A stretch of DNA of 64,000 nt from an uncultured Alphaproteobacteria bacterium. Its GTDB lineage: Bacteria; Pseudomonadota; Alphaproteobacteria; ATCC43930; CGMCC-115725. The position numbers were made by a program, and so were the translations under genes. The number at the start of each line of letters is the position of its first letter. Within the stretch, counting starts at the first letter, position 1. The notes under the pieces are model-generated. The model did no database searches. It worked only from the letters and a program-made list of their open reading frames with translations, and was not told where the DNA came from. Below, piece after piece: positions 19,198-57,680 of this stretch. Location of the stretch: NCBI GenBank assembly GCA_963812675.1, contig CAWEWR010000006.1, positions 284,723 through 348,722 on the forward strand, read 5' to 3'.

Positions 19198-19202
19198 CCT
19201 AC

Positions 19203-19487: not shown

Positions 19488-19807
19488 TGAGCCGCGCACC
19501 TGCCAGAGTAGCAATGGCCCCGCCACATCCTGGCGCGTTCATCCGGGAGGAAATTCTCGACGAGCTCGGCTTGTCGGTGAGTGAAGTTGCAAAGGTGCTC
19601 AACGTACGCCGCGCCACCCTTTCCGACCTGATCAACGGCAACGCGGCGCTGTCGGCTGAAATGGCGCTGCGGATCGAAAAGGCATTCGGGGTGAAGATGG
19701 AGACGCTGTTGAACATGCAGGCATGGCACGACGCCTACGCGATGCGCCAGCGAGAGGGCGAGATTGCGGTTAAGCCTTACCGGCCCCTTGCCCCCGAGCC
19801 GCGCTGA
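19487..19807 (+). CDS. higA: HigA antitoxin (XRE-type HTH)
   Basis: HPGAFIREEILDELGLSVSEVAKVLNVRRATLSDLINGNAALSAEMALRIEKAFG is the canonical HigA HTH. Confidence 0.85.
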   Translation: MSRAPARVAMAPPHPGAFIREEILDELGLSVSEVAKVLNVRRATLSDLINGNAALSAEMALRIEKAFGVKMETLLNMQAWHDAYAMRQREGEIAVKPYRPLAPEPR

Positions 19808-19825
19808 TTGTCCAAAGGGTTAATA

Positions 19826-41045: not shown

Positions 41046-41103
41046 CGTGATCCAGCCGAGCACAAAATCTCGAAACCGGGTCTTCTAAATATAGTCAGGC
41101 GAG

Positions 41104-41352
41104 TTAAGACCGTTTTGACGCGCGCGCAACCAGACGAAGATCAGAATCAGGCTCTTTGTAATGTATCAATCCGTAGGAAGGAAACTTAATCAAAACACCG
41201 CTGTTGAGATAGCTCCACTCCGTTTTTGGACAGTCGTCACTATACTCCCCCGTATCGATGGAGCAAACAACAACCCCCTGCTGTTCTTTGTCTATGGCCA
41301 CGATATCACCTAGTTTCACGTCCTGCCCGTCGGGGTATTTCATCCAGGGCAT
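41104..41352 (-). CDS. hypothetical small protein (possible immunity-like partner)
   Basis: Start taken at MPWMKY, 4 nt after the upstream stop. Low GC (about 42-50%). No recognisable motif. Confidence 0.4.
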   Translation of the reverse strand: MPWMKYPDGQDVKLGDIVAIDKEQQGVVVCSIDTGEYSDDCPKTEWSYLNSGVLIKFPSYGLIHYKEPDSDLRLVARASKRS

Positions 41353-41356
41353 CTCT

Positions 41357-41701
41357 CTAGTTTGCAAATGCCTCGATGGGAATAGCACCTCGAGGCAAAT
41401 TCGAAGGCGAAACCGCCCCTACAGCTTGCCAAAAGCATCGACAATTATTCGGATTTTGGTTCGCTCTGTAAAGATTGTAATGAGGGCCGGCGATGCCGTG
41501 TTGCGGGGTGCTCGGCGTCTCTAGCCGACGGTAGGCGATAGTTCCAACGGGAACCAACTTCCCGCTCACAGTCCGACAGGGAGGGCAGCGTGAGCCGTCG
41601 TCGTATTGCTGCTGCACGCTGTTGGTCATTTGTTGGATGATCGTTGCAACCAAAACCCGTCGTCGCCCGAACTTGGATAACCTGCTTTGAGGAAAATCCA
41701 A
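41357..41701 (-). CDS. hypothetical protein (Cys/His/Asn-rich, unknown family)
   Basis: 114-aa ORF in a low-GC segment, containing CPPC and GPHYNLYRANQNPNNCRCFW. Function unknown. Confidence 0.4.
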   Translation of the reverse strand: MDFPQSRLSKFGRRRVLVATIIQQMTNSVQQQYDDGSRCPPCRTVSGKLVPVGTIAYRRLETPSTPQHGIAGPHYNLYRANQNPNNCRCFWQAVGAVSPSNLPRGAIPIEAFAN

Positions 41702-41891
41702 ACTCCTTGGCCGCCCGCTTTACACGGTGCCGTCGCCGCGCAGCGCGGAAGAACGCTGGCTGAGCATCGGCGAGTTAAATGGGCGCTTTCTCTGCGTGGT
41801 TTGGACGTGGCGAGGCGGGGCCATTCGGGTCATCACGATGAGGAGAGCCCGCGATGAAGAAAAGCGACGATACCGCACGCTATACGGCTGA
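41691..41891 (+). pseudogene. brnT: 5'-truncated brnT (DUF497 ribonuclease toxin) remnant
   Basis: Only the C-terminal part is present: EERWLSIGELNGRFLCVVWTWRGGAIRVITMRRARDEEKRRY. There is no start codon or N-terminal half. The open frame begins right after a TGA at 41688-41690. Confidence 0.6.
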
Positions 41892-42186
41892 ACAGCTCGC
41901 AACGATGCGTCGGCGCGGCGAGAGCCGCACCGACTGGGCGCGGTTCGATGCGACGACGCAGGCCGAGCTGGAGGCCAGCATCGCCGCCGATCCCGACGAC
42001 GTGCATGAGGCGCCGCAATGGGACCAGGCCGTGCTGGGCCTGCCGCCCCGAAAGGAGCACATCAATATCCGCGTCGATGCGGACGTGCTGGAGTGGTTCA
42101 GGCAAACCGGCCGAGGCTATCAGACCCGCATGAACAACGTCTTGCGTGCTTTCGTCGAGAGCCGCAGGCGCATGCGCCAATCATGA
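41854..42186 (+). CDS. brnA: BrnA antitoxin (DUF4415 family)
   Basis: INIRVDADVLEWFRQTGRGYQTRMNNVLRAFVE is the characteristic BrnA C-terminus. It overlaps the brnT remnant by 38 nt. Confidence 0.8.
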   Translation: MKKSDDTARYTAEQLATMRRRGESRTDWARFDATTQAELEASIAADPDDVHEAPQWDQAVLGLPPRKEHINIRVDADVLEWFRQTGRGYQTRMNNVLRAFVESRRRMRQS

Positions 42187-42261
42187 TAAGGGTCCCGCAG
42201 TAGAGCACCCACTGTTTTGGCAACGCATTGGTCCGCGTGGCGCGGACGATCCCTTTTTGCG

Positions 42262-42360
42262 AATTCCGGGATCCTTTACGACCGCGCCCGGCGACTACCC
42301 CCGCAGACCCCCAGGTGGCCAGCCGGCAGCCTTGCGCGGTCGTGTCGAACTCCGGCATCG
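42262..42360 (-). pseudogene. fragment of a third terminase-large-subunit-like gene
   Basis: MPEFDTTAQGCRLAT and the underlying DNA match 47895-47950 and 56240-56297. Homology ends exactly at 42360, next to the stop of the kinase gene. Confidence 0.6.
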
Positions 42361-42870
42361 TTATGGCATGCCGCGAGCCACAATGCCCGTGGCCACGGCA
42401 ATCGCTAGGTCGCGGTCGGTCACTGGAAGACTAAGTTGCCGCAGAACATAGATATAACCACAAGCCAACACTTCCCTGTCGCCGAAGCCCTCAGCATGCG
42501 CCCACGTCCGCGCGGCGCGGATATACTCAGGGACCAATGAGAGCGCGCAGAATGCCTCCCGATCGAACCAGTCGATAGTGCCGGATCCTGCGGCCCACTG
42601 CAGCAAGTCCCGATGCCCATGCGGGTGAAAGAACGGGCTCAGTTCCAGTGTTACGGCTTCGAGCGCGCTCGGTAGCGGCCGAACCGACCCATAATCGATC
42701 AACATCACCCGATTGTTGATGTCGACCCGCGCGTTTTCCCCATGAAGATCACCATGCCGCGTACAGATATTGACGGAAATCTCCCTGTCTTCGAAGCGCT
42801 GCCAGTCAATTGATCCCAGCTGGGCGTGAAGCGCATGCAGCCGGTCTTCTCGGACCACCAGTTTCGCCAA
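42361..42870 (-). CDS. protein-kinase / aminoglycoside-phosphotransferase-like C-lobe (downstream half of the split receiver-kinase)
   Basis: Catalytic loop HGDLHGENARVD and metal-binding LIDYG. In the same frame as 42898..43788, separated by TGA plus 9 codons. Confidence 0.65.
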   Translation of the reverse strand: MAKLVVREDRLHALHAQLGSIDWQRFEDREISVNICTRHGDLHGENARVDINNRVMLIDYGSVRPLPSALEAVTLELSPFFHPHGHRDLLQWAAGSGTIDWFDREAFCALSLVPEYIRAARTWAHAEGFGDREVLACGYIYVLRQLSLPVTDRDLAIAVATGIVARGMP

Positions 42871-42897
42871 TTCGCCTATGGGTCTTTGTCTGGTGAT

Positions 42898-43788
42898 TCA
42901 ACTCATAAACCAAGGTTCCTCGGTATGTCGGAGCATCCGCACGCAGGCGGCCCCATCGGCATCAGACTCGTGTAAAACCTGAAACAGTGACCGGTCATAG
43001 CCGTCAAGCAGGCGGTAGAACGCGCCCTTTTTTCCTGCGACACGCGCAATTTCTCCACTAACGACTGGAGCATAAGTACCGGCCGGCAGCCTTACGATCT
43101 CCTGCTCGTAATTCAGCATCTCCCTTGCAATTATATTATAGTCGCCAAGCTTACTTGCTGCTGATATCCGAACGCCGCCTTGAGCGTCCCTGACATCGGC
43201 TTTCAGCACACTCGCGCCGGACAACCCGTCGCTTAGAACTTCAATATCGACGCACACTCCATTTTGGCGGCGCGCAAAGCAACGCAATAATCTCGCTTCG
43301 GCTTCGTTCAATGACATACCGGCACCCTTGGTATTAATCTCTATATCATCCGTTACCCGAGCGGTCTTAGCTATCTCCGCAGCGGCTTCGTAGAAAGGTC
43401 TAAGAGTGGCTTTTTGAAAGCGCCGGATCAGTCCAATTGGTTTGCGATCTCCCCAAACATCGCATTGCCTTCCCTCGGCGATTAATTGATCGACATACTC
43501 CTCTTCCATCGGTAAGCCAGTCAGGAAAAAGAGCGGCGTGTCCGGCGCCTTCTCCTGCACCGCACCAAGAACGGCTCTGCCGTGAATAACATCGGGGTCT
43601 AACCGCCCCGGCGCGGTCGGAATGCGCTGATCCAGCACGATCAGGTCGAATACCTTAGCACCGACCCGGCCGATTGCCGTATCCCTGTCCTCAGCTACCT
43701 CGACATTGCCGGCACCAAAGATCCTCTCTAATTCTGGCAAGATGCTCGCAACGCGAGCTAGCTCGTCCTCGACCAGAAGACAGCGCAT
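42898..43788 (-). CDS. response-regulator receiver domain fused to kinase-like N-lobe (upstream half)
   Basis: REC motifs CLLVEDE, DLIVLDQRIP and LFFLTG. Followed by the glycine-loop-like LSDGLSGASVLKADV. Ends at an in-frame TGA (42898-42900). Confidence 0.7.
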   Translation of the reverse strand: MRCLLVEDELARVASILPELERIFGAGNVEVAEDRDTAIGRVGAKVFDLIVLDQRIPTAPGRLDPDVIHGRAVLGAVQEKAPDTPLFFLTGLPMEEEYVDQLIAEGRQCDVWGDRKPIGLIRRFQKATLRPFYEAAAEIAKTARVTDDIEINTKGAGMSLNEAEARLLRCFARRQNGVCVDIEVLSDGLSGASVLKADVRDAQGGVRISAASKLGDYNIIAREMLNYEQEIVRLPAGTYAPVVSGEIARVAGKKGAFYRLLDGYDRSLFQVLHESDADGAACVRMLRHTEEPWFMS

Positions 43789-43797
43789 GATTGCCTC

Positions 43798-44688
43798 TCA
43801 TTTGCTGAGGCCAATAACCGGCCAGGTGAGAGTGAGGACGCAGCCCTTGTCCTTTTGGGGGATCAGCTCGGCAGTCCCCGACAAGGAAACCATCGCAGCC
43901 CGCAGGGCCGGTAGGCCGTGTCCGATATGGCCCTTGCTGCTCGTGCCAATCTCGAAAGCCCCGGGGATGCTGCCGTGAAAGCCGATACCCTCATCGAGGA
44001 TCGATATCCAGTAATCGCGGTCCGTCGCATCCCAGTTGATGACGATCGCCGGCCTGTGGTCCGCCGTCGCCACGGGAAGGCACGCCTCGATAGAATTGCG
44101 CAGCCCATTCGTGACTGCCATCGTGATAAGCGACGGATCGCCCTGTACCAACAACGGAGCTGGTCCAGCAAAACTCAGCAGACACTTACTGTGCTCAAGA
44201 TCATGGGGCAGGCAGTCACGAATAACCGTGGCCAGATCGAAATCTTCAATTACCGCTGGCTTGGCGGCGTTATAGAGCTTTGCAATAGCTGCGACCTGTA
44301 ATTTGATCTGACCTATCCGCGTTTTCGTTTCGCTCGCTTCGAAGTCCACAATTTCGGCTGCCGCTCTTTGCTCGATATCCCCAATAAGTGGATTTAGCTG
44401 ATGAAGCACACGCTCCGTCACATGGCGCAGTGACTTCACATAGGCTTCGTCGTAAATCGCTTTCGCCTGCTCCGCCGGCGGTTCCGCCGCAACCGGCACC
44501 TGCGCGCTCAACGCTTGAAGGGCAGAAGCGAATTGTTGCCTGATCTGCGGCACCGTTTCGCCGTAGAACGCCGCCTCGATCACGTTGCGATCGACGAGAG
44601 TTGGGTTGGCGGCGATCTCCCGGCCGGCAAGACGGCGATCGGCCGAGCGCTTCGATGACACGAGGGCGGCAAACTGTTCAGGCGTCAT
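43798..44688 (-). CDS. soluble histidine kinase (DHp + HATPase_c), no TM or classical sensor domain
   Basis: H-box-like SLRHVTERVLHQLNPL, N-box NGLRNSIEA, G1 DEGIGF and G2 GHGLPAL. Short HEAT-like N-terminus. ATGA overlap with the upstream ATPase gene. Confidence 0.75.
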   Translation of the reverse strand: MTPEQFAALVSSKRSADRRLAGREIAANPTLVDRNVIEAAFYGETVPQIRQQFASALQALSAQVPVAAEPPAEQAKAIYDEAYVKSLRHVTERVLHQLNPLIGDIEQRAAAEIVDFEASETKTRIGQIKLQVAAIAKLYNAAKPAVIEDFDLATVIRDCLPHDLEHSKCLLSFAGPAPLLVQGDPSLITMAVTNGLRNSIEACLPVATADHRPAIVINWDATDRDYWISILDEGIGFHGSIPGAFEIGTSSKGHIGHGLPALRAAMVSLSGTAELIPQKDKGCVLTLTWPVIGLSK

Positions 44689-46532
44689 TCATTCGAATGC
44701 CGTCTATAGAAATCCGCGCGCGTCCGAAATGCTTCGATACCGCCCTCCATCACGCCCGTGATCGCAGCTACCGTTTTCGGATGGTCAAGCGGCTCGGCGT
44801 GCATGACAAAGCCACGGCGCCCATTCGATCCGAGCCGCGCGACACGCGCGGCCTCACCCAGAACCGGTATGTTTGCGTTGTGTGTGGTAAAGAGGATCTG
44901 ACCCTTGGCGGACCGCTTTCTGATTGCGCCGATCAAAGTCTCGACGATGAAGGCGTTGTCCAGATGATCCTCGGGCTGATCAACGATCAAAACGCGATCA
45001 GGATTTTGCAGCAAGATTGACAGGACGACTGTACAGCGCTGCCCCACAGACACGCTGTCCATCGGCTTAAAGTCCGCGCCATCGAGCAATTCGAAATCGA
45101 CCGCGTCTTCCAGAGCGATACTGATTATGTTGTCGCTGCCGCCAGCCCGCAGCTGGGCTGCAATCCGTTCGGCGCGATCCAGGCTGATCTTCGCCGTTTT
45201 GCTGATAAATTGGACGTCGTTGGCTTCAACGGCCTCTATCAATTCGCGAGGCGTCATAGTGACGACTATGGCCCTGGCGAGTTCATTATACCTCAGCCCG
45301 CTGCCGCGCAGCACGTTGATTACCGCGCCGACAAATTCGCTGACCTGAGCCGCCTGCCGGACCCTCACGCGGATAAACGGCGACAAATTGCTCGTCAGCA
45401 GCTTGGCGATGCGCTGTCGCTCCGCACACCGCGCTTCCCGCAGGGCATCGAGCTCGTCGAGCAGGGCGCGGCGCTGCTTCTGTACCCGTCCAGCCCGCTC
45501 CAGCCTTTGGCCCACCAAAGCCTTCAGCGCTTCCAGCTGGGTCGATTTCTCCCTCAAACCGGCCAATTGCCGGGCCGCGGCGCCGGCACCCTCCTTGAGA
45601 CCTTCGACCTCTCGCCGGATGGCCCGCGCCTGCTCTTCCAGCGGCGCACGCTCTTTCTCGACCGCTCGGATCGACGCTTCGATGTCCTCTACGGACGCGG
45701 CGAGCAGGTCGTGCGCGGAATTGATATGTCTCTCCGCTTGGGCGAGCTTAAGCCGAACCGGTTGAAGTATGTCGGTTGCGCCGGCCGACCTCGGCCAATC
45801 ATCGAGCGAGAAGCCGAAGACTTTGACCCCCTCCGTCTCATCGCGATAATTTTTCGTGGTTTCCAACGCGCGACGCAAAGCATCGCCTCTGACAGCCAAA
45901 TTCGCGCTCTGGGCAGCTAGTCCCTCAAGCTGCTTCTGCTTCGCATCCAGAAGCGATGAGCTCTTCGAAATTTCCGCGGCGCGTGCCTCGGCGCGGTTCA
46001 GCTCGACGACGATACTCTCCGAACCGGCTAACCGCTCGCTGATCTCATCCGCTTCGCGCAATAGGCTAAACACCTCGGTCGTCAACGAGCGTATTTGCGT
46101 AACAAGCCTGCGTTCCTCGGAACGCTGCACCGAGCTCGCCGGCAGAAACAAATCGACAATGTTCAACCGGCCCCGACTACTCAGGCCGACCAACTCCAGG
46201 TTGTTCTGCGAGAAAATCAGGGGGCGCGAGAGCCCTGGTTCCAGCCCCTCGGGCTCGGCGTTCGCCGCCCGCGAGATATCGATGTCGTTTTCTCCATCTT
46301 CGATCGAGAGCGTAACCTGACCATCTTGCAGAACCGACAACGCTTGTTCTCGCGAGCGTTTCTGATCTTCCTCGTCCGCCGATCCGGGTTGGTCGAAACA
46401 ATACCGGATCAGCTCGATAACCGATGATTTGCCGGTGCCGCGCCCGCCGATCAGCACGTTTAGCCCCGGCTCAAACCGGAGGTCCAAACCATCGAGAAAG
46501 CCGCCCTCGACCTGCATCCGCCTGACGATCAC
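44685..46532 (-). CDS. SMC/Rad50-like ABC-type ATPase with central coiled-coil-like region
   Basis: Walker A GGRGTGKSS at residues 29-37. Middle of about 250 aa rich in A/E/R/L/Q. Signature-like SVGQR and Walker B/D-loop VLIVDQPEDHLD, then FTTHN. Confidence 0.8.
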   Translation of the reverse strand: MIVRRMQVEGGFLDGLDLRFEPGLNVLIGGRGTGKSSVIELIRYCFDQPGSADEEDQKRSREQALSVLQDGQVTLSIEDGENDIDISRAANAEPEGLEPGLSRPLIFSQNNLELVGLSSRGRLNIVDLFLPASSVQRSEERRLVTQIRSLTTEVFSLLREADEISERLAGSESIVVELNRAEARAAEISKSSSLLDAKQKQLEGLAAQSANLAVRGDALRRALETTKNYRDETEGVKVFGFSLDDWPRSAGATDILQPVRLKLAQAERHINSAHDLLAASVEDIEASIRAVEKERAPLEEQARAIRREVEGLKEGAGAAARQLAGLREKSTQLEALKALVGQRLERAGRVQKQRRALLDELDALREARCAERQRIAKLLTSNLSPFIRVRVRQAAQVSEFVGAVINVLRGSGLRYNELARAIVVTMTPRELIEAVEANDVQFISKTAKISLDRAERIAAQLRAGGSDNIISIALEDAVDFELLDGADFKPMDSVSVGQRCTVVLSILLQNPDRVLIVDQPEDHLDNAFIVETLIGAIRKRSAKGQILFTTHNANIPVLGEAARVARLGSNGRRGFVMHAEPLDHPKTVAAITGVMEGGIEAFRTRADFYRRHSNE

Positions 46533-46864
46533 CGGGCTACCTCTCCCTTACACCAGCATCCCATTCCCACCCAGACATGCTCCTCCAACCGATCAGCGTT
46601 CGCCTCTCCCGTCCCCGGCCTGCGGCGTAGCTTAGCATTTGGCGGAACGCTCGCTAACCCCAACCTTGGGGCCCTTCCTAAACGGCTGCTCAGGTGAAGG
46701 GTTTTCGGATGCCGGCTCGTCGTGACCTATCCGCGCGTGATGAAGGCCGGCGTCCGAAAGCCTCCCAGGGGGGAACCGGCGGGGGTTGGTTGGTAAGTCT
46801 GCCGTGACCAGGCTCGCGCCTCACCCCGCCATTCTCAGCAACTGCGGAAGCCGACCGCCGACAG

Positions 46865-48361
46865 CTACGCCGGCTTCGGTGTCGGCGGATCGCGAAGCTC
46901 TTCGGCGAGCATTCTGTAATAACCGTAGAAGCCGCCCGGCTCTCGACTGGCGCCTTTGAACCAGTCGAGCATTTGGGCGGTCGAGTCGACTTGGTCGTCG
47001 TGCTTGGCGTTGGGGAAGGTGGACAGCTCGGCGAGGTATCGGGCGAGCCATGGCGCCTCTTCGGGCAGGTGCACGAAGCCGTTCTCGATCATTGCGGTCT
47101 GCGCGTGCATTCGCATGACCTTGTCCGACTGCGGGCGGTAGCGGGTGACGGCGTGGAGGCCGTCGGCGATCAGTTCCTGGATCAATTGCGTGCCCGAGGC
47201 CTTGTCCTCGATCAATACGACCGAGGGGGCGAAGCGCTCGTATTGCTCGCGCACGGCGCGCTTCAATTCGGGATACTCCATGCGCCGGCGCAAGACGTTG
47301 ATCAAATAGAGGTTCTTGCCCGCGACGCCCCAGCTCGTGCACACGCTGAAATCGCTGAGCTCGGTCGCCTTGTTGGCGGTGTCCCAGCTCTGCGCGATGC
47401 GCTCGAAGCGCGGCGGCAACTCGTCGGGCGCGTAGCGCCGGAACCAGGCCGCCTTGACGAGGCCGCCGCCCAATGGGGCAGGGGCCTGCTGGTACTGGCC
47501 GGCGAAATTGTATTCCCCGATCGTGCGGCGGATATGCGCGAGCACCGCATCGGGCTCGCGCTCCGGGTGCAACGCCTCGCCGCGGCGGCGCGCGAATTGT
47601 TGCGGGCCCAGCACCGTGTCGACGAGCAGCGCCTCGTCCTCCTCGGCGAATGCCGGGAAGCGCACGGTCTCCCACGCCTCCTGCGCCAGCACGTGGCCGG
47701 TGAGGTCGTCTTCCTGCAATCGGTGCATGATGAGGACGATCGCGCCGGTGAGCTTGTCGTTGAGACGGCTGTAGAGGGTGTGGTCGAACCAGTCGTTCGC
47801 CGCCTGGCGCTGGGTTTGCGACAATGCCTCCTCGGGCTTTAAGGGATCGTCGATGACGATGAGGTCGGCGCCGCGCCCGGTCAATACGCCGCCGACCGAG
47901 GTGGCGAGGCGGCAGCCCTGCGCGGTCGTGTCAAATTCGGGCATCGCGGCGCGCAGCGGCGACAGGCGCGTCGGGAAGATCCTTTGGTACCAGTCGCTGG
48001 CGACGATATGCCGGCAATCGCGCGACAATTTGTCGGCGAGGTCCTGCGCATAGCTGACGCAGAGGATCTGCGCCGACGGGTCGTGCCCGAGACACCACGC
48101 CGGAAACGCGACCGAGGCGAGCAGCGACTTCAGGTGGCGCGGCGGCAGGTTGACGACGAGGCGGCGGATGGCGCCGGTGCGCACTGCGGTCAATTTGGCG
48201 GCGATGATTTCGATATGCCAGCTCATCGCGAAGCGGGTGCGCGGGTTGAGCTCACGAAAGGCGCGCGCGGCAAAGTCGTACCACAGGAATGCCGCACAAG
48301 AGTCGTGCCCGCGTCGCCGCAACGAGGGCGGCTCTGACGCATCGCGTATTAATTGCCACAT
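46865..48361 (-). CDS. phage terminase large subunit-like protein, copy 1
   Basis: ATPase Walker B-like ADLIVIDDP. C-terminal nuclease-like VLIEDKASG and HDDQVDSTAQMLDW. About 90% identical to copy 2. Start uncertain. Confidence 0.75.
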   Translation of the reverse strand: MWQLIRDASEPPSLRRRGHDSCAAFLWYDFAARAFRELNPRTRFAMSWHIEIIAAKLTAVRTGAIRRLVVNLPPRHLKSLLASVAFPAWCLGHDPSAQILCVSYAQDLADKLSRDCRHIVASDWYQRIFPTRLSPLRAAMPEFDTTAQGCRLATSVGGVLTGRGADLIVIDDPLKPEEALSQTQRQAANDWFDHTLYSRLNDKLTGAIVLIMHRLQEDDLTGHVLAQEAWETVRFPAFAEEDEALLVDTVLGPQQFARRRGEALHPEREPDAVLAHIRRTIGEYNFAGQYQQAPAPLGGGLVKAAWFRRYAPDELPPRFERIAQSWDTANKATELSDFSVCTSWGVAGKNLYLINVLRRRMEYPELKRAVREQYERFAPSVVLIEDKASGTQLIQELIADGLHAVTRYRPQSDKVMRMHAQTAMIENGFVHLPEEAPWLARYLAELSTFPNAKHDDQVDSTAQMLDWFKGASREPGGFYGYYRMLAEELRDPPTPKPA

Positions 48362-48450
48362 CGCGCTTGCGATCGAAGGTGCCAACGATGCACCCTTGAT
48401 TCACCTATCGTCCCTAAACCTAATTTACCGACGAATACCTGGGGGCACGC

Positions 48451-50025
48451 ATGGCAACGAGTAGCAAGACCAGAAACGGGCGGGAGACGCCGAAACAATC
48501 GTTCGAGGCCACGTTGTGGGCTGCGGCCGACAAGCTGCGTGGCAATATGGATGCCGCCGAATACAAGCACGTCGCGCTCGGCCTCATCTTCCTGAAATAC
48601 ATTTCCGACCGTTTCGAAGAGCGGCGCGCTCGCGCGCTCGATGATCCGGAGGAAGCGCCCCTCGTCGACGAGCGTGACCTCTACATCGGCGACAACGTTT
48701 TCTGGGTGCCCGACAAGGCGCGGTGGGATTTCATTAAGGAGAACGCCACCAGCGTAGAGCCGACGATCGGCCAACTGCTCGATGAGGCCATGCTGCTGCT
48801 TGAAGCCGAGAACGCGAGCCTCAAAGGCGTGCTGACCAAGAATTACGCCCGGCCGGAACTCGACCAGATCCGGCTTGGCGAGGTCATCAAGTTGTTCTCC
48901 GACCTCGCCTTCCGGGACGAGCACCACGGTGAGGACGTGCTCGGCCGCGTCTACGAATATTTCCTCGGCCAGTTCGCAATTGCCGAAGGCAAGCGCGGCG
49001 GCCAGTTTTATACGGCTGGCTCGGTCGTGCGCGTGCTGGTCGAGATGCTGCAGCCGTTCGAGGGCCGCGTCTACGACCCGTGCTGCGGCTCGGGCGGCAT
49101 GTTCGTGCAGTCGGAGCGGTTCGTCGAGGCGCATAACGGTCGCCGCAACGATGTCTCGATCTTCGGCCAGGAATCGAACCCGACGACCTGGCGCCTCGCG
49201 AAGATGAACCTCGCGATCCGCGGCATCGAGGCCAATCTTGGCCCGAAATGGGCCGACAGCTTCCACGAGGATCTGCACCCCGGCCTCAAGGCCGATTTCG
49301 TGCTCGCCAACCCGCCCTTCAACGACAGCGACTGGGGCGGCGAACGGCTGCGTTCAGGCGAGCGCTGGCGCTATGGCGTGCCGCCCGCTGGCAACGCCAA
49401 TTTCGCCTGGGTGCAGCACTTTATCGACCATCAAGCGCCGCACGGTTACGCCGGGTTTGTGCTGGCCAACGGCTCGCTGTCGAGCCAGCAATCCGGCGAG
49501 GGCGAGATCCGCCGCGCGATCATCGAGGCCGACCTGGTCGACTGCATCGTCAGCCTGCCCGGCCAGCTGTTCTTCACGACGCAGATCCCGGTCTCTTTGT
49601 GGTTCCTGACCCGCGACAAGTCGAACGGGCTCGTGCGCGCCGAGCGGCTGCGCGACCGCAGAGGCGAGACCCTGTTCATCGACGCCCGCAAGCTCGGCAC
49701 GATGGAGACGCGCATTCTGCGAGTATTGAGCGATGCGGATGTCGCCAAGATCGCCGATGCCTACCACGCTTGGCGCGAGACCGGCGGCCGTTATGCGGAC
49801 GACCCCGGCTTCTGCAAGTCAGCGACGACCGAGGAGATCGCCGCCCAAGGCCATGTCTTGACCGCCGGCCGATATGTCGGAACCGCAGCGGCGGAAGGCG
49901 ACGAGGAGGCGTTTAACGAAAAGATGGAGCGGCTCCTCGCGAAATTGTGCCAGCAACAAGCTGAGGCTGCGAAGCTGGATGCGGCCATCATTGCCAACCT
50001 TCGGGAGCTTGGGTGTGGCAACTGA
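48451..50025 (+). CDS. hsdM: type I restriction-modification system, DNA methyltransferase subunit
   Basis: Motif [11 protein letters not shown] and motif [14 protein letters not shown]-terminal HsdM_N-like [32 protein letters not shown]. Confidence 0.95.
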
Positions 50026-51307
50026 TGGTAATGTTAAAACATTGGGCGATTATTTCACGCTCCAACGCGGGACCACCTACAACAGCCGGCTACTGGGACA
50101 GCCGGGACCAGTTCTGTTGGGACTTGCTACCATCCAACGCAACGGCGGATTTCGCAGAGACTCTCTTCGGACATACGGTGGGGAGTCCCCGGCCAAGCTG
50201 ATGGTCGAGCCCGGGGAACTCTATCTCTCCTTAAAAGATGTGACCCAATCCGCAGATTTGCTCGGCGCAGTCGCAAGGCTGCCGCATGATCATCCTTCCG
50301 GCAGATTGACCCAAGACACGGTCAAACTAGCTCCAAAATTCGAAGGGGTGCCGCAGGGCTATCTTTATTGGTTGCTTCGAACTCCGCTGTACAGAGACTA
50401 CTGTCGAGCACACGCAACAGGGACGACCAACCTGGGTTTGGCTCGTGAGGATTTCCTTTCCTTTCCTGCTCCGCAACCTACGCCGACGCAGCTCCGGATG
50501 GTTCAAGTCCTGAATGCACTGGAAGATAAGATCGAGACGAACCGGCGGATGGCGGAGACGCTTGAGGCGATGGCGCGGGCGCTGTTCCTGAGCTGGTTTG
50601 TAGATTTCGAGCCCGTCCGCGCCAAGGCCGACGGCCGTCCGATTGGCGTCCCCGATGACCTCGCCGCCCTCTTCCCCGACCGTTTTGAGGAGGACGGGTT
50701 ACCAACCGGATGGCGTCTTACTACTCTTGACGAGGTCTGTCATCTTAATCCTGAAAGCTGGACCCGTAACAATAGACCGGATGTTATCGAGTATGTTGAC
50801 CTCGCAAATACGAAATCTGGCATTATTGAAGCAACGCAGATATTCAGTCGAGATGCCGCGCCAAGTAGAGCGCAGCGTGTACTTCGTTGTGGGGACACCA
50901 TCGTGGGCACGGTTCGACCTGGTAATAACTCTTATGCCCAGGTGGCTATCGATGGGTTGACTGGCAGTACGGGCTTTGCCGTGCTCCGACCTAAGCGACC
51001 AGAATTCGTCTCTTTCGTTTACTTGATAGCGACGGCGGCCAGCAATATTGAAGCGCTCGCCCAGCTCGCCGATGGCGCCGCCTACCCCGCCGTGAGGTCA
51101 GAGGTGGTATTACAGACGCCTTTACCTCTGCCCGATGATCGTCGTGTCTTGAAGAGGTTTTCTGGGGCGGTTGACCCGTTGATGTCTCGCCGGCGCATGG
51201 CGCTGGTCAACAGTGAAACGCTTGAAGCGACCCGAGACATGCTCCTCCCCAAGCTAATCTCCGGCGAACTTCGCATCGCCGACGCCGAGCGCATCTCCGT
51301 CGCCTGA
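50015..51307 (+). CDS. hsdS: type I R-M specificity subunit
   Basis: GTG 50015 is 7 nt after GGGAG and overlaps the hsdM end. Two target-recognition domains are separated by the conserved helix [26 protein letters not shown]-terminal [11 protein letters not shown]. Confidence 0.85.
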
Positions 51308-51309
51308 CC

Positions 51310-51999
51310 ATGCCGTACATGCTCCAGATGCTGCGGGCGCTGATGCAGGAGCATCCGGACCGGGCAGAACGTTTGCGCGTGCATGTCGAGGCGTTGGAGG
51401 CCAGCATCGAGGGTCAGCCGGCGTTCTGCCTTCAAAACGTGCGGACCTTGTTCGAGGCGGCGCATGCGACGATCGCTCCGCAACTGGGGGTGACATTCGG
51501 GAAAAGCAGCGGCTTCCCCGGTCGTATGCGCAGTGTGATCGAGAAGATGGACTTCTCGATTACCGATCATCCGGACGCCACCAAGATACATGCGACGATC
51601 ACCGCCTTGCTGAAGGGCATCGACGACACAGCGGTTGCGCTGGCGGATCTCAGCAACATTCCCAATATGCGTCATGGCGGCTCGCTTGATTGGGGCACGC
51701 TCGAACGCCAGCACGCGTTGATGCTCGGCGGATTGTGCGACGCGCTGGTGAGCTTCCTATTCGGTGTCGCCTGGCGGCGCCCGGCGGCAGGGGCGACAGC
51801 GCCGGGGCCCGATCGCTACGAGGATTTCGCGGCATTCAATACCTGGCTCGACGACGAGCACGAGAACGTGGAAATCGCCGGTTCGCTGTTCCTGCCGAGC
51901 AAAATCCTGTACCTGCTGGACACCACACAGTACGAGGCCGTGCGGATGGATTGGGAGGCCCAGCAGGCGATCAACGTCGCCGGTCGGGAGGCTCAGTGA
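51310..51999 (+). CDS. unknown protein embedded in the type I R-M operon (possibly Abi_C-like)
   Basis: Starts 2 nt after the hsdS stop, and its stop overlaps the hsdR GTG (GTGA). [10 protein letters not shown] weakly recalls the RN..G.aHG motif of abortive-infection C-terminal domains. Not verified. Confidence 0.5.
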
Positions 52000-54900
52000 C
52001 GGAATTCTACTCGATCGCCGAAACGCGAGCCGCCGGCTTCCGCGAGGAGGCCGTCGAGCTGGCAGCGTTGTCGTGGTTCGAGCTGATTGGCTGGCGCAGC
52101 GTTCCGGGCGATTATCTGGCGCCTGGCGGGCCGAGCGGGGCGCGCTCCGACTATCGGCACGCGCTGCTGGAGCCCGAATTGCGCAGCGCGCTGGCGACAC
52201 TGAACCCGGATGCGGCGCCGGCGACGATCGACGCGGCGGTACGCACCGTGCTGGCGGTGCCGAGCCAGGATTTGCTTGAAAACAACCGCGCCTTTCACCC
52301 ACTGCTGGCCTCGGGCGTCCCGGTCGAGATTACCGATAAGGGGGAACGCCGCACCGTCGGACTGCGCCTTCTTGACCGCGTCAACCCGCGCGCCAACCGG
52401 CTGCTGGTCGCCAATCAGTTCATCGTCCGAGGCGAGCGGGAGGCGGTCCGCGCCGACATCGCCGTCTTCGTCAACGGCTTGCCTCTGGCGGTTCTGGAAT
52501 TGAAGAGCCCCGCCGACACGCAGGCGACGCTCGAACGGGCCTACACCCAACTGCAGAACTACAAGGCCAAGGCGCCCGAGCTGATGCGCTGCAACCAGGT
52601 TCTGGTGATCAGCGATGGGATCGAGGCTCGGATCGGCTCATTGACTTCCGGGATCGACCGCTTCGGGCCATGGCGCACGATCGACGGCGAGAGCGACGAC
52701 GATGACGGGCGCGCCGAGCTCGAAGTGCTGATCCGCGGCGTCTTCGCGCCCGAGCGCTTTCTCGACCTGATCGTCGATTATGTGGCGTTCGAGATTGAGG
52801 ACGGCGTCGTCAAATCGAAGAAGCTCGCCGGCTATCATCAGTTCCATGCGGTGCGCAAGGCACTGGCCTCGACGGTGCGCGCCGCCGGCGTCCGCGGCGG
52901 ACGCAAGGGTGGGGTCATCTGGCATACGCAAGGCTCGGGCAAGTCGCTGACGATGCTGTTCTTCGTGCGCCAGCTTCAGCTATCCCGCGAGCTGAAGAAC
53001 CCGACCATCGTCATCGAGACCGACCGCAACGACCTTGACGATCAGCTGTTCGGCACGTTCTGCGCGCATGGCTCGGCGTTGCGCATCACGCCGCGTCAGG
53101 CCGACAGCGCGGCCGAGATGCGCCAATTGCTCAAGGTCGATATCGGCGGTATCGCCTTCACCTCGATCCAGAAATTCCGCGGCGCGGATGGCGGCCACCC
53201 GATTTTAACCGACCGCAGCAATGTCATCGTCATCGCTGACGAGGCGCACCGGACTCAGTATGGGCTCGGCCGGCGCTTCATTGTCGGCGAGGCGGCGGTA
53301 CACGAGCAGGTCGGGTTTGCCGCCTATTTGCGCCAAGCTTTGCCCAACGCCACATTCGTCGGCTTCACTGGAACGCCGATCGACTTGCACGACCGCAGCA
53401 CCGAAGGCGTCTTCGGAGAAATCGTCGACACCTACGACATGAGCCAGGCCGTCGCCGACAAGGCGACGGTGCCGATTCACTACACCGCCCGGCTCGCCAA
53501 GCTCCATCTGCGCCTCTCCGACGAGGAGCGCGAGCAAATGGACGCGCTCGCAGAGGAGCTGACGGAGGGGGACGAAACCGCCGTTGAACGCGGCAAGGGA
53601 AAGCTCACCCGCTTCGAGGAAGTGGTCGGCGCACCGGAGCGCGTTGCCGAGATCGCTGCAGATATCGTCGCGCATTTCGAGCAGCGGCGCGAGGCGATGG
53701 CGGGCGGCAAGGGCATGGTCGTCGCGATCAGCCGCCGCGTTGCCGTCGACCTCTACGACCAGATCGAGGTGCTGCGCCCAGATTGGGTCTCGGCCGATCC
53801 GCAAGACGACGCTGTCGGCCTGTTAAAGGTGGTCATTACTGGCAACGGCAACGAGGACCCGCCGGCCCTGCAACCCCATCTGCGCAGCAAACGGCGCCGT
53901 GAGGCCATTGCCGAAAAATTCAAAAATCCGGATTCGGGCTTCGATCTGGTGATCGTTCGCGACATGTGGCTGACCGGCTTCGACGCCCCGTCATTACACA
54001 CGCTCTATATCGACAAGCCGATGCGCGGGCACGGGCTGATGCAGGCGATAGCGCGCGTCAATCGGGTGTGGGGTGACAAGCCCGGCGGTCTCGTCGTCGA
54101 TTACCTCGGCATCGGCGCAGAGTTGCGCGAGGCATTGGCGCAATACAGCGACCGTGACCGCCACCAGATTCGCCTCGACCTGGACGAGGCGGTCCGCCAG
54201 ACATTGATGCGTCTGGAAAGTGCCGAGGCGCTGCTCGGCGGCGCGCCGTGGCGCTCATTCTTCGGCGAACGACCGGCCGGGCGGCTTACGGTGTTGAAGC
54301 GCTGTCTCGAAAGCGTGTTGACGGGCGGCCTCCGCGACGAGTTTCTGAAAACGGCGACCGAACTCGAAACCGCCTATGCGCTGGCGGCTGGTGACGAGCG
54401 GATGACCGCGCGTCACGACGAGATCGCTTTGATAGCAGTGATGCGCGCCAACCTTATCAAGTACACATCGAGCAGCGGGCGCGGCCGAAGCGGCGTCGAG
54501 CAGCAGCTTCGCCAGCTACTGTCGCGCGCGGTGATGGCCGACGGCATTCTCGACGTGTTCAAATCCGCCGGTCTCGATGAGCCGAACCTGTCGGTCCTTT
54601 CCGAGGAGTTTCTTGCGGAGGTCGGCCAGACCAAGGAAAAGAGCCTGGCCGTGGAAACGCTCCGGCGGCTGCTTGCCGGAGAGATCATGGCTCGCGAACG
54701 GACCAATATCGTTGTCGCCCGCAAGCTGAGCGAGCGCCTCGACGACACCTTGCGCAAGTACCACAACCGAGCCGTCGACAGTGTCCAGGTGATCGAGGAA
54801 CTCATCGCCTTGGCAAAGGACATCAGCGCCGAGACAACCAGAGGCGCAGAACTAGGCTTGAACGGCGAGGAACTAGCTTTTTACGACGCGCTGGCCGAAA

Positions 54901-55139
54901 ACGGCTCGGCGCGCGACCTGATGGCGCACGAGCAGCTGCGGCTGTTAGCGCAAATCCTGGTCCAAACGATCCGGGGCTCAGCGACGATCGACTGGACCAA
55001 AAAGGAGAGCGTGCGGGCAAAGATGCGGATCGAGGTCCGCAAACTGCTGGCGCGTTACGGTTACCCGCCGGACCTCCAGCGGGCTGCCGTAGACCTGGTG
55101 ATCCGGCAAGCGGAGTCGCTCGCGGGAGCCTGGGCGTAA
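51996..55139 (+). CDS. hsdR: type I R-M restriction endonuclease/helicase subunit
   Basis: GTG start gives VTEFYSIAE. Walker [15 protein letters not shown] box [11 protein letters not shown] and motif [10 protein letters not shown]. Confidence 0.95.
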
Positions 55140-55181
55140 TCAGCGCGCAGCCCCGCGGCGAGCCTACATTTCAGGACTTGG

Positions 55182-56696
55182 TCACCTGCCGAGAAGCCCC
55201 AACCGCTTCGCGATCGCCGATAACGGCTCGGGGAGCTGGGTCTGCGGCTCTTGGGCGAGAGCCCTGTAATATCGGTAGAACCCGCCCGGCTCCCGGCCTG
55301 CGCTCTTGAACCAGTCGAGCATTTGGGCGGTCGAGTCGACCTGGTCGTCGTGCTTGGCGTTGGGGAAGGCGGTCAGCTCGGCGAGGTATGGGGCGAGCCA
55401 CGGGGCCGCCGCCGGGAGATAGACAAAGCCGTTCTCGATCATTGCGGTTTGCGCGTGCAGGCGCATGACCTTGTCCGACTGCGGGCGGTAGCGGGTGACG
55501 GCGTGGAGGCCGTCGGCGAGCAATTCCTGGATCAATTGCGTGCCCGACGCCTTGTCCTCGATCAGCACGACCGAGGGCGCGAACCGCTCGTATTGCTCGC
55601 GCACTGCGCGCTTCAATTCGGGGTATTCCATGCGGCGGCGTAAGACGTCGATCAGGTAGAGGTTCTTGCCCGCGACGCCCCAGCTCGTGCAGACGCTGAA
55701 ATCGCTGAGCTCGGTCGCCTTGTTGGCGGTGTCCCAGCTCTGCACGATGCGCTCGAAGCGCGGCGGCGCTTCGTCCGGCCCGTGGCGCCGGAACCAGGCC
55801 GCCTTGACGAGGCCGCCGCCCAACGGGGCGGGCGCCTGCTGGTATTGCCCCGCGAAATTGTATTCGCCGATCGTGCGGCGGATATGCGCGAGCACCGCCA
55901 AGGGCTCGCGCTCCGGGTGCAACGCCTCGCCGCGGCGGCGCGCGAAATGTTGCGGCCCCAGCACCGTGTCGACGAGCAGCGCCTCGTCCGCCTCGGCGAT
56001 CGCCGGGAAGCGCACGGTCTCCCACGCCTCCTGCGCCAGCACATGGCCGACGAGATCATCCTCGTGCAATCGGTGCATGATGAGGACGATCGCGCCCCCG
56101 AGCTTGTCGTTGAGGCGGCTGTAGAGGGTGTGATCGAACCAGTCGTTGGCCGCCTGGCGCTGGGTTTGCGACAATGCCTCCTCGGGCTTTAAGGGATCGT
56201 CGATGACGATGAGGTCGGCGCCGCGCCCGGTCAAGACGCCGCCGACCGAGGTGGCGAGCCGGCAGCCCTGCGCCGTCGTGTCGAATTCGGGCATCGCGGC
56301 GCGCTGCGGCGACAGGCGGGTCGGGAAGACCCTTTGGTACCAGCCGCTGGCGAGGATATGCCGGCAATCGCGCGACAGTTTGTCGGCGAGGTCCTGCGCA
56401 TAGCTGACGCACAGGATCTGCGCCGACGGGTCGTGCCCGAGACACCACGCCGGAAACGCGACCGAGGCGAGCAATGACTTCAGGTGGCGCGGCGGCAGGT
56501 TGACGACGAGGCGGCGGATGCCGCCGTCGCGCACGGCGATGAGTTTCGCGGCGATGATCTCGACGTGCCAGTTCATCGCAAAGCGCGTCCGCGGGTTCAA
56601 TTCGCGGAAGCAGCATTGCGCAAAGCTGACCAGATCGCGCCGCAGCAGCGCCTGGTACTCGGAGTGGCTCAGCGTCTGCCGGACTATAGGTTTCAC
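55182..56696 (-). CDS. phage terminase large subunit-like protein, copy 2
   Basis: Collinear with copy 1 at an offset of 8350 nt. The GTG 56696 start after GGAGGA is tentative. The upstream ORF extension runs through a REP-like element. Confidence 0.75.
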   Translation of the reverse strand: MKPIVRQTLSHSEYQALLRRDLVSFAQCCFRELNPRTRFAMNWHVEIIAAKLIAVRDGGIRRLVVNLPPRHLKSLLASVAFPAWCLGHDPSAQILCVSYAQDLADKLSRDCRHILASGWYQRVFPTRLSPQRAAMPEFDTTAQGCRLATSVGGVLTGRGADLIVIDDPLKPEEALSQTQRQAANDWFDHTLYSRLNDKLGGAIVLIMHRLHEDDLVGHVLAQEAWETVRFPAIAEADEALLVDTVLGPQHFARRRGEALHPEREPLAVLAHIRRTIGEYNFAGQYQQAPAPLGGGLVKAAWFRRHGPDEAPPRFERIVQSWDTANKATELSDFSVCTSWGVAGKNLYLIDVLRRRMEYPELKRAVREQYERFAPSVVLIEDKASGTQLIQELLADGLHAVTRYRPQSDKVMRLHAQTAMIENGFVYLPAAAPWLAPYLAELTAFPNAKHDDQVDSTAQMLDWFKSAGREPGGFYRYYRALAQEPQTQLPEPLSAIAKRLGLLGR

Positions 56697-56699
56697 CTC

Positions 56700-56870
56700 C
56701 AAAATTTCCTCCTCTCCCCCCGCCGGCCGGGGAGAGGGTAGGGTGAGGGGGGCCGACGAGGTTTTCGCGCTTGCGGCGCCGCCCACCTCACCCTCCCGTC
56801 GCTGCGCGCCGGGTCCCTCCCCCGGATCGCGTCCGGGGCAGGCTCTCTCCCCCCTAAAGGGCGGAGAGGG
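56700..56870. repeat. REP-like GC-rich palindromic element between DUF5681 and the terminase gene
   Basis: ccggggagagggtagggtgagggggg, its partial complement cccacctcaccctccc, and ctctcccccctaaagggcggagagggg. Same motif family as 25263-25426. Confidence 0.45.
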
Positions 56871-57282
56871 GCTCATCCGTGTCTCCGTGGTAAAGCTTTG
56901 CCGATTCCATACGCCGCAGGCGGGCCAGCAAATTTTCGACGACCTCCTCGTCTGCGGGCGTGAACGGCGGCGCTTCCGGCGGCGGCGCGGTGCCGGCCCG
57001 CTTTTCGATGTCCTTCAGCATGTCGATCAGCATCTTGGTCGCACGCAGATCGGCGCCGGTCGATTTGTCGACCAATTGCGCGATGACCGCCTCGCGCTTG
57101 GTGATCTGCCGGCTGTGGCCGTCGGTCGTGACGATGACCGGCTCGTCGAGCGCGCGCACCAGCAACTCCGGCAGGTTTTTCGGGCGCGGGCCGCGCGGGT
57201 TGCCGGACTGGCCCTTCTGGAACCGGCTGTGCAGCGGCGGCCTGCCGCGGCCGACCTTGTATTCGCCAGCGCTCTCATCCAT
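56854..57282 (-). CDS. DUF5681 domain protein (commonly paired with this terminase-like gene)
   Basis: GRGRPPLHSRFQKGQSGNPRGPRPKN is the DUF5681 signature. Confidence 0.7.
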   Translation of the reverse strand: MDESAGEYKVGRGRPPLHSRFQKGQSGNPRGPRPKNLPELLVRALDEPVIVTTDGHSRQITKREAVIAQLVDKSTGADLRATKMLIDMLKDIEKRAGTAPPPEAPPFTPADEEVVENLLARLRRMESAKLYHGDTDEPLSAL

Positions 57283-57384
57283 GCAAATGCCGCCAATTAG
57301 CGATAGCCAAGCCCGAATTGGTGCTTATATCACCAGCGGCTGTCATTGTCAATTTAACAATACATGTAAGCGCAATGAAGACTT

Positions 57385-57529
57385 TTCCCTGCGGTTTCCC
57401 TGCCGAGCTGCCGGCAGGGAAGATGTTTTCCCTGCCGGTAGCGCGTCGCGCGGGCAGAAAGCTTGCGGCCGCAACGGCTTGCTGAGCGGCGGACGAATTT
57501 TTTCCCGTGTTTTCCCGGGCGGCAGGGAA
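57385..57529. promoter_or_regulatory. cluster of TTCCCTGCC / GGCAGGGAA 9-mers (iteron or operator-like)
   Basis: Direct copies at 57385, 57396 and 57428, inverted copies at 57413 and 57521. 57396-57421 is a 10-bp perfect inverted repeat with a 6-nt spacer. Partial copies at 57501 and 57511. Confidence 0.35.
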
Positions 57530-57559
57530 ACGCCCGCGAGTGGCTGACCGGGGCGAACC

Positions 57560-57588
57560 TTGCCTCGCGGCGGCGGCTTCGCTATATC
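57560..57588 (+). promoter_or_regulatory. candidate sigma-70 promoter of tRNA-Pro (TTGCCT-17-TATATC)
   Basis: The -10 ends 15 nt before the mature tRNA 5' end. Confidence 0.45.
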
Positions 57589-57603
57589 TCGCCCCTTGGT
57601 CGG

Positions 57604-57680
57604 CGGAGTGTAGCTCAGCCTGGTAGAGCACTGCTTTCGGGAGGCAGGGGCCGGAGGTTCAAATCCTCTCACTCCGACCA
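57604..57680 (+). tRNA. tRNA-Pro (anticodon CGG), CCA-encoded
   Basis: Cloverleaf folded by hand: acceptor CGGAGTG/CACTCCG, D arm GCTC/GAGC, anticodon stem CTGCT/GGCAG with loop TTCGGGA, T arm GGAGG-TTCAAAT-CCTCT, discriminator A, CCA. Confidence 0.9.

Follow-up and report, generated by a model that had tools for sequence, protein, structure and literature searches.

The region between a tRNA-Pro gene and putA, on a 64,000-nucleotide stretch of the chromosome of an uncultured soil alphaproteobacterium (contig CAWEWR010000006.1; the whole stretch is hereafter called the window), is probably a gene-turnover hotspot that was nucleated by a stranded, satellite-like module of two genes, DUF5681 and the large-terminase gene terL, and that grew by serial recombination anchored on terL. 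Read along the minus strand from the tRNA side, the module, which contains terL copy 2 (encoding TerL2), is followed by a type I restriction-modification (R-M) cassette (cassette 1), terL copy 1 (encoding TerL1), an ATPase/HATPase_c/REC-kinase cassette (cassette 2), a 79-bp terL scar and finally brnA, a brnT remnant and a low-GC pair of open reading frames (ORFs) (Table 1). The features from DUF5681 to the low-GC pair had been listed in this order in an earlier note on this DNA, and all of them are found where the note placed them. The slot that lies behind the module, 14.1 kb long in the window between the terL2 stop codon and putA, has exact boundaries. Its contents turn over between orthologous loci, the same pattern recurs at other chromosomal sites, and terL is under selection.

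Slot contents differ among orthologous loci

A scan of related genomes, taking one genome per species, yielded 77 loci, which we number with the prefix L. The loci L015 and L016 and a metagenome contig (L087) represent the same chromosomal site as the window. The genes akr and asp (asparaginase-like), an ORF of 88 amino acids (aa), tRNA-Pro, DUF5681 and terL are syntenic at 86–96%, and putA is found further on in L015 and L016, while the L087 contig ends before putA. Homology with all three loci breaks off at window position 55180, 2 bp beyond the stop codon of terL2, and where putA is present it picks up again at the stop codon of that gene (window position 41045 for L016 and 41057 for L015). 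Between these points, the L015 slot contains brnT-brnA, a 365-bp terL 3′ fragment and low-GC ORFs of unknown function; the L016 slot contains higB-higA, a 350-bp terL 3′ fragment and four unknown genes; and the L087 slot contains brnT, followed by reverse-transcriptase-like and RAYT-like (REP-associated tyrosine transposase) fragments. The slot contents share nothing besides the terL scars and an L015/L087 match that runs into brnT (L087 11534–12181). A second full terL is absent from L015, L016 and L087, and none of the window cargo proteins was found in the 77 related loci.

The earlier note had proposed that related genomes be aligned between tRNA-Pro and putA, and when this is done the flanks are kept while the content differs in all four loci; the conserved core synteny that would have spoken against a slot was not seen. 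Because the window cargo is absent from the related loci, the objection of conserved core synteny fails, and the slot is real. The note's further claim, that the region downstream of terL is a slot for variable cargo, is borne out by these four orthologous loci and by its recurrence at a minimum of three other sites, described below.

We also observe a block of ~600 bp by the putA stop codon in L015 (17017–17651), which occurs twice in L001 (90–718 and 18157–18478), on either side of the terL copies there. By eye, this block looks like a PIN-type toxin-antitoxin (TA) pair.

It is barely credible, and largely refuted, that the region is a classical tRNA-Pro island that has since lost its integrase. 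The island does adjoin tRNA-Pro, as the earlier note described, and this tRNA gene is a live target in the clade: an insert of 1.86 kb in L015 is bordered on each side by the same 39 bp of the tRNA 3′ end, a perfect repeat (7165–7203 and 9061–9099). This insert has no counterpart in the window, and it has the look of a canonical remnant of tRNA integration, distinct from the terminase island. It lies on the 3′ side of the tRNA, where insertion is canonical, whereas the window island lies on the 5′ side. The window contains neither an integrase nor a tRNA-derived direct repeat (there is no partial tRNA copy), both absences having been correctly noted earlier. Elsewhere the module occupies non-tRNA sites: a tRNA stands beside it only in the orthologous loci L015 and L016, and L026 and L075 each have an unrelated tRNA elsewhere in the locus. 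Taken together, the 5′-side position, the lack of a repeat in the window, the restriction of the tRNA to orthologous loci and the L015 insertion on the other side make the abutment incidental.

Two terminase copies from different lineages, and a scar

The two terL copies lie on the same strand as direct repeats at a distance of 8350 bp, and they align over 1364 bp (46897–48260) at 91.5% nucleotide identity (E=0). The scar matches each of the copies at 81% identity (blastn E=4e-12; tblastn E=4e-6), and the terL repeats are far beyond chance. The scar begins right after the stop codon of cassette 2, and its homology ends at 42360 in blastn, precisely as the earlier note had claimed. Of the three terminase landmarks named in that note, two stand as near-full terL genes, while the third amounts to the 79-bp scar only; the ORF next to it, at 42361–42870, is not a terminase but the C-terminal kinase part of the REC-TCAD9 gene.

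Pairwise nucleotide identities show that TerL1 is closer to copies in other genomes (93.2% to L001a and 92.3% to L004) than to TerL2 (89.4%), and this fits the serial accretion proposed earlier. TerL2, in turn, is 94.6% identical to its positional orthologue in L015, a distance of 5.4%. The greater proximity of TerL1 to other genomes' copies implies that the two genes derive from different family lineages, with no recent local duplication. TerL1 has no DUF5681 upstream, its family homology spans 46800–48275, and its first ~37 codons have no DNA homologue in other terL loci. It is very improbable that terL was copied in situ, by unequal crossing-over or slippage, and that unrelated cassettes were inserted later with no accretion of elements. 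Same-strand direct repeats are indeed the arrangement that favours unequal exchange, but the two copies are 10.6% apart, more than the distance between TerL2 and L015, the start of TerL1 is unmatched in other loci, their C-terminal tails differ and the orthologous loci hold no second full terL.

The tails in question end in ...DPPTPKPA in TerL1 and in ...PEPLSAIAKRLGLLGR in TerL2 (46865–46900 versus 55182–55250), and TerL C-terminal tails also vary between lineages (alignment columns 560–722). The C-terminal end of a terminase usually contacts the portal, and the differing tails might reflect different helper capsids.

The ORF that encodes TerL2 carries a false N-terminal extension, its first 63 codons being the translation of a GC-rich insert; the real start of TerL2 is at ~56696–56702. 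In an alignment of 28 diverse TerL members, down to 55% identity and with both window copies included, a Walker A-like PPR(H/S)LKS motif with K70 and a Walker B motif hhhhDDP(L)KP with D163/D164 are present, these residues being invariant. The QRLHEDD coupling motif is likewise conserved in the alignment, including both window copies, as are the nuclease motifs QSWDTA, IEDKASG and KxDDQVDS, with D319, E377/D378 and D447/D448 invariant. Both copies match the C-terminal RNase H-like nuclease domain Terminase_6C (PF17289), while the match to Pfam Terminase_6N is below threshold. A phmmer search of TerL against the PDB gave no match, and the TerL family profile weakly matches the solved terminase ATPase domains 8dgc (E=1.5e-4) and 4bij (E=2.4e-4).

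Selection was assessed with Nei-Gojobori estimates of the ratio of nonsynonymous to synonymous change (omega) and of synonymous distance (dS). For TerL2 versus L015, omega is 0.14 at a dS of 0.17, and the flanking genes give omega values of 0.14 (putA), 0.16 (asp) and 0.12 (akr) at a dS of 0.29–0.40. The corresponding omega values are 0.25–0.29 for DUF5681 and 0.23–0.33 for TerL1. Since the omega of TerL2 equals that of the flanking genes, the module is being maintained and is not drifting. TerL2 is under purifying selection, with its catalytic motifs kept.

DUF5681 lies directly upstream of terL in 66 of the 77 genome loci, and by this position it is presumed to be a small terminase (TerS) or packaging-specificity subunit. 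Its AlphaFold2 model is weak (pLDDT 66), and a Foldseek search with this model matched nothing but another DUF5681. The GC-rich, self-complementary insert of ~180 nucleotides recurs at the same place in L004, L010 and L015 (87–92%) and partly in L005 and L006; no second copy was found elsewhere in the window. It could be a repeat of the repetitive extragenic palindrome or miniature inverted-repeat transposable element (REP/MITE) kind, or it could serve a function, for instance as a pac site or in regulation.

The same pattern at other chromosomal sites

In L003, L004, L005, L006 and L010, upstream synteny of at least 11 kb (88–90%) ends at the terL 3′ end, and everything beyond differs. Upstream synteny is likewise kept between L007 and L011, with differing downstream regions. 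Up to the terL stop codon, L090 and L091 share 96.6% identity; beyond it, L090 has a BrnT-antitoxin pair and a terL 3′ fragment, while L091 has Vsr. In L078–L086, the genes after ParB_N-DUF5681-TerL encode an nSTAND1-WD40 protein, SIR2_2 and a REC protein, and 8.6 kb downstream there is a fragment of terL.

In 12 of the 77 genome loci, as well as in L078 and L090, an intact terL has one or more further copies or fragments of the gene behind it on the same strand. The genes between such copies include a cyclase-AAA_16 STAND protein, an SF1 helicase-REase_MTES_1575 fusion, a RES toxin, BrnTA, HigBA, HepT/MNT-like pairs, an Hsp70-like ATPase, DUF7689, nSTAND-WD40 with SIR2, and many unknowns; the cargo between terL copies is mostly of defence, TA or unknown type. 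The starts of the terL fragments vary from aa 348 to aa 503, and some fragments are internal. A single site-specific crossover in terL, considered as a candidate mechanism, is excluded by this scatter.

Comparison of L034 with L039 shows, in addition, inverted copies of the last ~290–520 bp of terL ~1 kb downstream of the intact gene (for example, L039 12604–12890). Such inverted ends indicate that terL 3′ ends have been duplicated in both orientations.

The right flank of the window is itself found attached to the module elsewhere. In L088–L095, 442 bp from the 3′ end of putA (41038 to 40597, 89–90%) stand before the module (matching the window from 57535 to 55180 at 85–88%), and the two are joined through 43 unrelated bases (for example, L090 898–1383). 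A junction of this kind would be the expected product of a circle or tandem duplication comprising the module, its cargo and the putA 3′ end. Campbell-type integration of such a circle via the putA piece would give the order seen in L088–L095, and it predicts a full putA beyond the cargo. A metagenome scan for sequence extending L090 rightwards gave one short contig, which points the wrong way.

Another switch of side involves two aldo-keto-reductase genes, which lie downstream of the terL island in L007 (18887–20828) and upstream of DUF5681 in L011 (7157–9093); it resembles the side switch of putA between the window and L088/L013.

These loci bear on whether the region is an ordinary hotspot between core genes, of the kind known as spots in Escherichia coli, with recombination in any conserved flank (putA, asp or the tRNA) and the terminase as a bystander. 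Inter-core-gene spots are common in general, and the right boundary of the slot is the stop codon of a housekeeping gene, putA. Spots of this type have been used as units of analysis (PMC12829572). We nevertheless consider this account improbable, as the terL-anchored behaviour recurs at three or more unrelated places in the chromosome whose right flanks differ, the scars within the slot reveal terL itself as a participant in the joins, and the module has moved together with a piece of putA in L088–L095.

The parent element family

TerL belongs to a very large family. A protein search returned at least 7998 matches among 8000 candidates, the best 120 of which are at least 73% identical. The family spans Alphaproteobacteria, Acidobacteriota, Dormibacterota and Binataceae, in metagenome-assembled genomes (MAGs) from soil, and in Acidobacteriota and Alphaproteobacteria it is multi-copy; single MAGs have up to five loci. 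Clustering of neighbouring genes, together with 80 IMG/VR contigs, resolves a canonical unit of ~6.5 kb that consists of a large serine recombinase, DUF2924, a small variable gene, a ParB-DNA methyltransferase (phrog_498), DUF5681 and TerL. In a second arrangement, DUF2924 and the recombinase come after terL. L172, L173 and L144 contain units arranged head to tail, and several copies are present in L020. Nucleotide conservation across loci does not extend past the 3′ end of terL. No portal or capsid gene was found within 10 kb of terL in the 77 genome loci and 80 IMG/VR contigs (~175 loci examined).

A complete head module is part of capsid-forming phage-inducible chromosomal islands (PICIs). 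Satellites known so far typically have a terS of their own and use the terL of their helper (PMC9618062). Set against both, a unit with the two terminase subunits (DUF5681 as putative TerS) and no capsid genes is unusual. A search of the accessible literature on DUF5681, and on elements combining DUF2924 with a terminase, found no description, and the element family is apparently undescribed as well as very abundant in soil.

Probable growth of the slot by terL-anchored recombination

From the arrangement of the copies, we infer that homologous recombination on terL was the joining mechanism. In this lineage, DUF5681-terL would be all that is left of the parent unit, inherited vertically beside tRNA-Pro and kept by selection. 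Because terL is multi-copy and 85–95% identical between related genomes, it can act as a portable homology arm. An incoming terL, whole or in part, would recombine together with its adjoining cassette at the resident terL, so that each event would place a new cassette right behind an intact terL and displace the older terL downstream, where it would be truncated. The window would then hold at least three layers from the tRNA side: terL2 with the R-M system, terL1 with cassette 2, and the scar with brnA, the brnT remnant and the low-GC pair. Addiction cargo such as R-M and TA systems, when placed between direct terL repeats, may counter repeat-mediated deletion.

Several points weigh against this reading or narrow its reach. 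The model is read from scars, and no recombination event has been directly observed. The variable fragment starts mean that some junctions are illegitimate, for example that between cassette 2 and the scar (42358–42360), and a decayed tandem array of whole elements could leave similar scars. The defence role of cassette 2 and of most of the unknown cargo is putative. Several of the genomes used for comparison are MAGs built from long reads; apparent frameshifts in them, extending even to putA, make pseudogene calls there unreliable. Family-wide, the three genes next behind terL are singletons for the most part, many being housekeeping genes (AcrB, Cpn60, PFK and others), and few families recur; no dip in GC content downstream of terL was found across 38 loci; and TA parts appear among the small ORFs within 1 kb of terL in only a handful of loci. 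On these grounds, we reject a defence slot as a universal property of the family. As terL is the last gene of a small mobile unit, much of the variable content downstream of it is, family-wide, ordinary chromosome. The expectation of the earlier note that other DUF5681-terL pairs would be followed by variable cargo holds in part: the downstream region is variable, and at least three further orthologous groups have kept upstream sequence, but across the family this region is often plain chromosome. Judged from the loci compared, slot behaviour is demonstrated for the sublineage of the window and a few others only.

The decayed-array alternative holds that the region is a passive wreck of satellite or prophage elements once integrated head to tail by their own recombinase and since stripped, by deletion, of the recombinase, the ParB-methyltransferase, DUF5681 and the 5′ parts of terL; terL would have no present role, and the cargo would stem from dead elements. 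Complete head-to-tail units do exist, full units carry a large serine recombinase, and the many terL fragment lengths are such as random deletion would leave. We regard this account as unlikely, though far from negligible. TerL2 and DUF5681 are under purifying selection in at least four species-level genomes that have no other element genes, and four genomes, each with a cassette of its own, begin to diverge exactly where terL stops. Moreover, cassette 2 occurs independently elsewhere without any element gene, and the window contains no remnant of a recombinase, a ParB or a second DUF5681.

A more active role for the module is also conceivable, in which DUF5681-TerL would be a working packaging initiator that has no capsid of its own and uses capsids of helpers or gene transfer agents (GTAs), with one-way packaging proceeding through terL into the slot. 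We hold this to be doubtful. A cut near its own locus would make the DNA behind terL hyper-mobile, and the module would be selected for spreading defence cargo. Terminase breaks at the terL end, followed by end-joining, would explain why cassettes start at the stop codon, and they would also explain the terL 3′ fragments in both orientations and the module with 442 bp of putA in L088–L095. Such terminase-driven mobilisation is speculative; it would agree with the purifying selection, with variability on one side only and with the junction that carries putA.

Comparison with known systems

A close parallel to a terL-anchored turnover hotspot is offered by P2-like prophages and P4-like satellites, whose defence hotspots (Rousset et al. 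2022, PMC9122126) consist of a slot between conserved genes of phage origin. The content of the slot, rich in defence and TA genes, varies between close relatives, and exchange is presumed to occur via recombination in the conserved flanks. Conserved flanks with different cargo are likewise found here, in the window with L015, L016 and L087, in L003–L006 with L010, and in L090 with L091. The cargo in the relatives is a mix of STAND, SIR2, helicase-REase and TA genes with many unknowns, type I R-M being clear in the window. In contrast to the P2/P4 hotspots, however, there is no complete phage or satellite around the slot, and one flank is the housekeeping gene putA. The pile-up of truncated copies of the anchor gene, terL, inside the slot is not a described feature of P2/P4 hotspots.

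Compared to PICIs and Staphylococcus aureus pathogenicity islands (SaPIs) (PMC12829572), the full relatives of the window module share an integrase, regulators and a distal packaging gene followed by accessory or defence genes, and both lack tail and lysis genes. The full relatives differ in having a large serine recombinase with DUF2924, a ParB-methyltransferase and a large terminase of their own, and in lacking primase or replication genes and capsid-remodelling genes; the window, unlike these satellites, has no integrase. With regard to what defines a satellite, virion genes are absent from the window and packaging genes (DUF5681 and TerL, with predicted roles) are present, while an integrase and att sites of its own are absent. 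The PICI-like minimalist islands known as PICMIs (PMC10803314) resemble the full unit in their tiny content (~6 genes and ~6.5 kb for the unit here) and in their lack of capsid-remodelling genes. They differ in their genes and in their hosts, which are Vibrionaceae as opposed to soil Acidobacteriota and Alphaproteobacteria, and packaging of the family described here is putative.

Phages of the pac type package in the terS-to-terL direction, and defence islands lie downstream of prophage and PICI pac sites (PMC12829572; PMC8575950). The window shares with these lateral transduction platforms the presence of variable defence genes on one side of a terminase element, in the terS-to-terL direction. 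The likeness is positional only.

A TerL outside a full phage genome is also a general feature of capsid-forming PICIs and GTAs, but those carry portal, capsid and head-completion genes by terL, whereas the ~175 loci examined here have none within 10 kb. The closest cultured phage terminases, such as that of Roseobacter phage CRP-901, belong to the same TerL family (phrog_38) at identities of at most 38%. In CRP-901, the portal gene comes directly after terL, and an hhalign comparison of its annotated TerS with DUF5681 detected no similarity.

The finding is a variant of the known phage/satellite hotspot theme, tied to an apparently undescribed and very abundant family of soil elements. It is of interest in that a two-gene module, stripped of other phage functions and conserved like a housekeeping gene, marks a slot that is sharp to the base pair. 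It is known that defence islands gather in phage and satellite hotspots, and the present slot bears on how chromosomal islands without an integrase turn over. If the terminase were active, it would give soil bacteria a simple route for mobilising defence genes. The terL anchor could also be used as bait for new defence systems in soil metagenomes.

Cargo cassettes and surroundings of the island

Table 1. Coordinates of the island and its flanking landmarks in the window, listed from the tRNA side.
Feature	Position	Strand	Evidence or remark
tRNA-Pro(CGG)	57604-57680	+	ARAGORN; Rfam 63.7 bits; conserved left landmark
Region upstream of DUF5681, moves with the module	57283-57535	-	Hairpins at ~57510-57535 and 57404-57445
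DUF5681 gene	56854-57282	-	PF18932 E=2e-20; phrog_26239
GC-rich self-complementary insert, ~180 nt	56698-56877	-	RNAfold -104 kcal/mol
terL copy 2 (TerL2)	55182-56702 (ORF 55182-56876)	-	PF17289 E=2e-19; phrog_38 E=9e-113
Cassette 1, type I R-M with Abi_C-domain gene	48451-55139	+	Pfam, PADLOC; convergent with terL2
hsdR	51996-55139	+	PADLOC REase_I 2e-299
Abi_C-domain gene	51310-51999	+	
hsdS	~50015-51307	+	PADLOC Specificity_I 1e-67
hsdM	48451-50025	+	PADLOC MTase_I 2e-200
terL copy 1 (TerL1)	46865-48385	-	PF17289 E=1e-17
Cassette 2, ATPase/HATPase_c/REC-kinase unit	42358-46694	-	Pfam
SMC-like ATPase	44685-46532	-	Pfam
HATPase_c protein	43798-44688	-	Pfam
REC+TCAD9 kinase	42361-43788	-	Pfam; in-frame stop 42898-42900
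terL scar, 79 bp (TerL aa 195-219)	42282-42360	-	blastn, tblastn
brnA, intact	41854-42186	+	PF14384 E=1e-18
brnT remnant	41745-41849	+	Matches BrnT aa 43-77; tblastn with L015 BrnT E=1e-10
Low-GC ORF pair (94 and 114 aa)	41104-41701	-	GC 0.53 versus 0.71 for putA
putA	37893-41045	+	Pfam; conserved right landmark

The region upstream of DUF5681 shares homology with the same module in other chromosomal contexts as far as 57535 (L088–L091) or 57437 (L003–L005). The type I R-M system of cassette 1 is complete, with hsdM, hsdS and hsdR all intact, and its genes, like brnA, lie on the strand opposite to terL.

Cassette 2 is, judging by its occurrences elsewhere, a discrete self-contained unit. A soil contig (L178) matches exactly 42358–46694 (87% nucleotide identity) and nothing beyond, and the operon is also found away from terL on a Bradyrhizobium chromosome and at the edge of a region resembling an integrative and conjugative element. 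PADLOC gives weak ATPase matches for this cassette. The TCAD9 domain scores 27.8 bits against a Pfam cut-off of 40, and the REC-TCAD9 gene is split by its single in-frame stop codon into ORFs of 296 and 169 aa; homologues in L178, L179 and L181 are intact (476–480 aa). The stop reflects either a recent pseudogene or an assembly error.

At the putA end of the slot, brnT is truncated by the low-GC ORF pair and lacks ~42 N-terminal codons, leaving the BrnTA pair no longer intact. The two low-GC ORFs match no Pfam or PADLOC family at threshold and have no homologue in the related loci. The tRNA is the sole match to a noncoding RNA in an Rfam scan of the island, and the cassettes are flanked by no repeats besides the terL copies themselves.

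The window as a whole is high-GC alphaproteobacterial chromosome, with ordinary metabolic and regulatory genes outside the island, including a PhyR-type regulator, and nothing phage-like among them. As the earlier note had reported, integrase, portal and capsid genes are absent, and this holds for all 64 kb. Short direct repeats that are unrelated to the island occur elsewhere in the window, at 10347–10503/12494–12647 (88%), 16675–17071/17104–17495 (68%) and 21264–21579/24292–24410 (91–92%). A higB/higA-like pair at 19166–19810 is 85.7% identical at the nucleotide level to the pair at L016 11517–12165, which stands directly behind terL, indicating that one family of TA cassettes moves between the terL slot and sites elsewhere on the chromosome.

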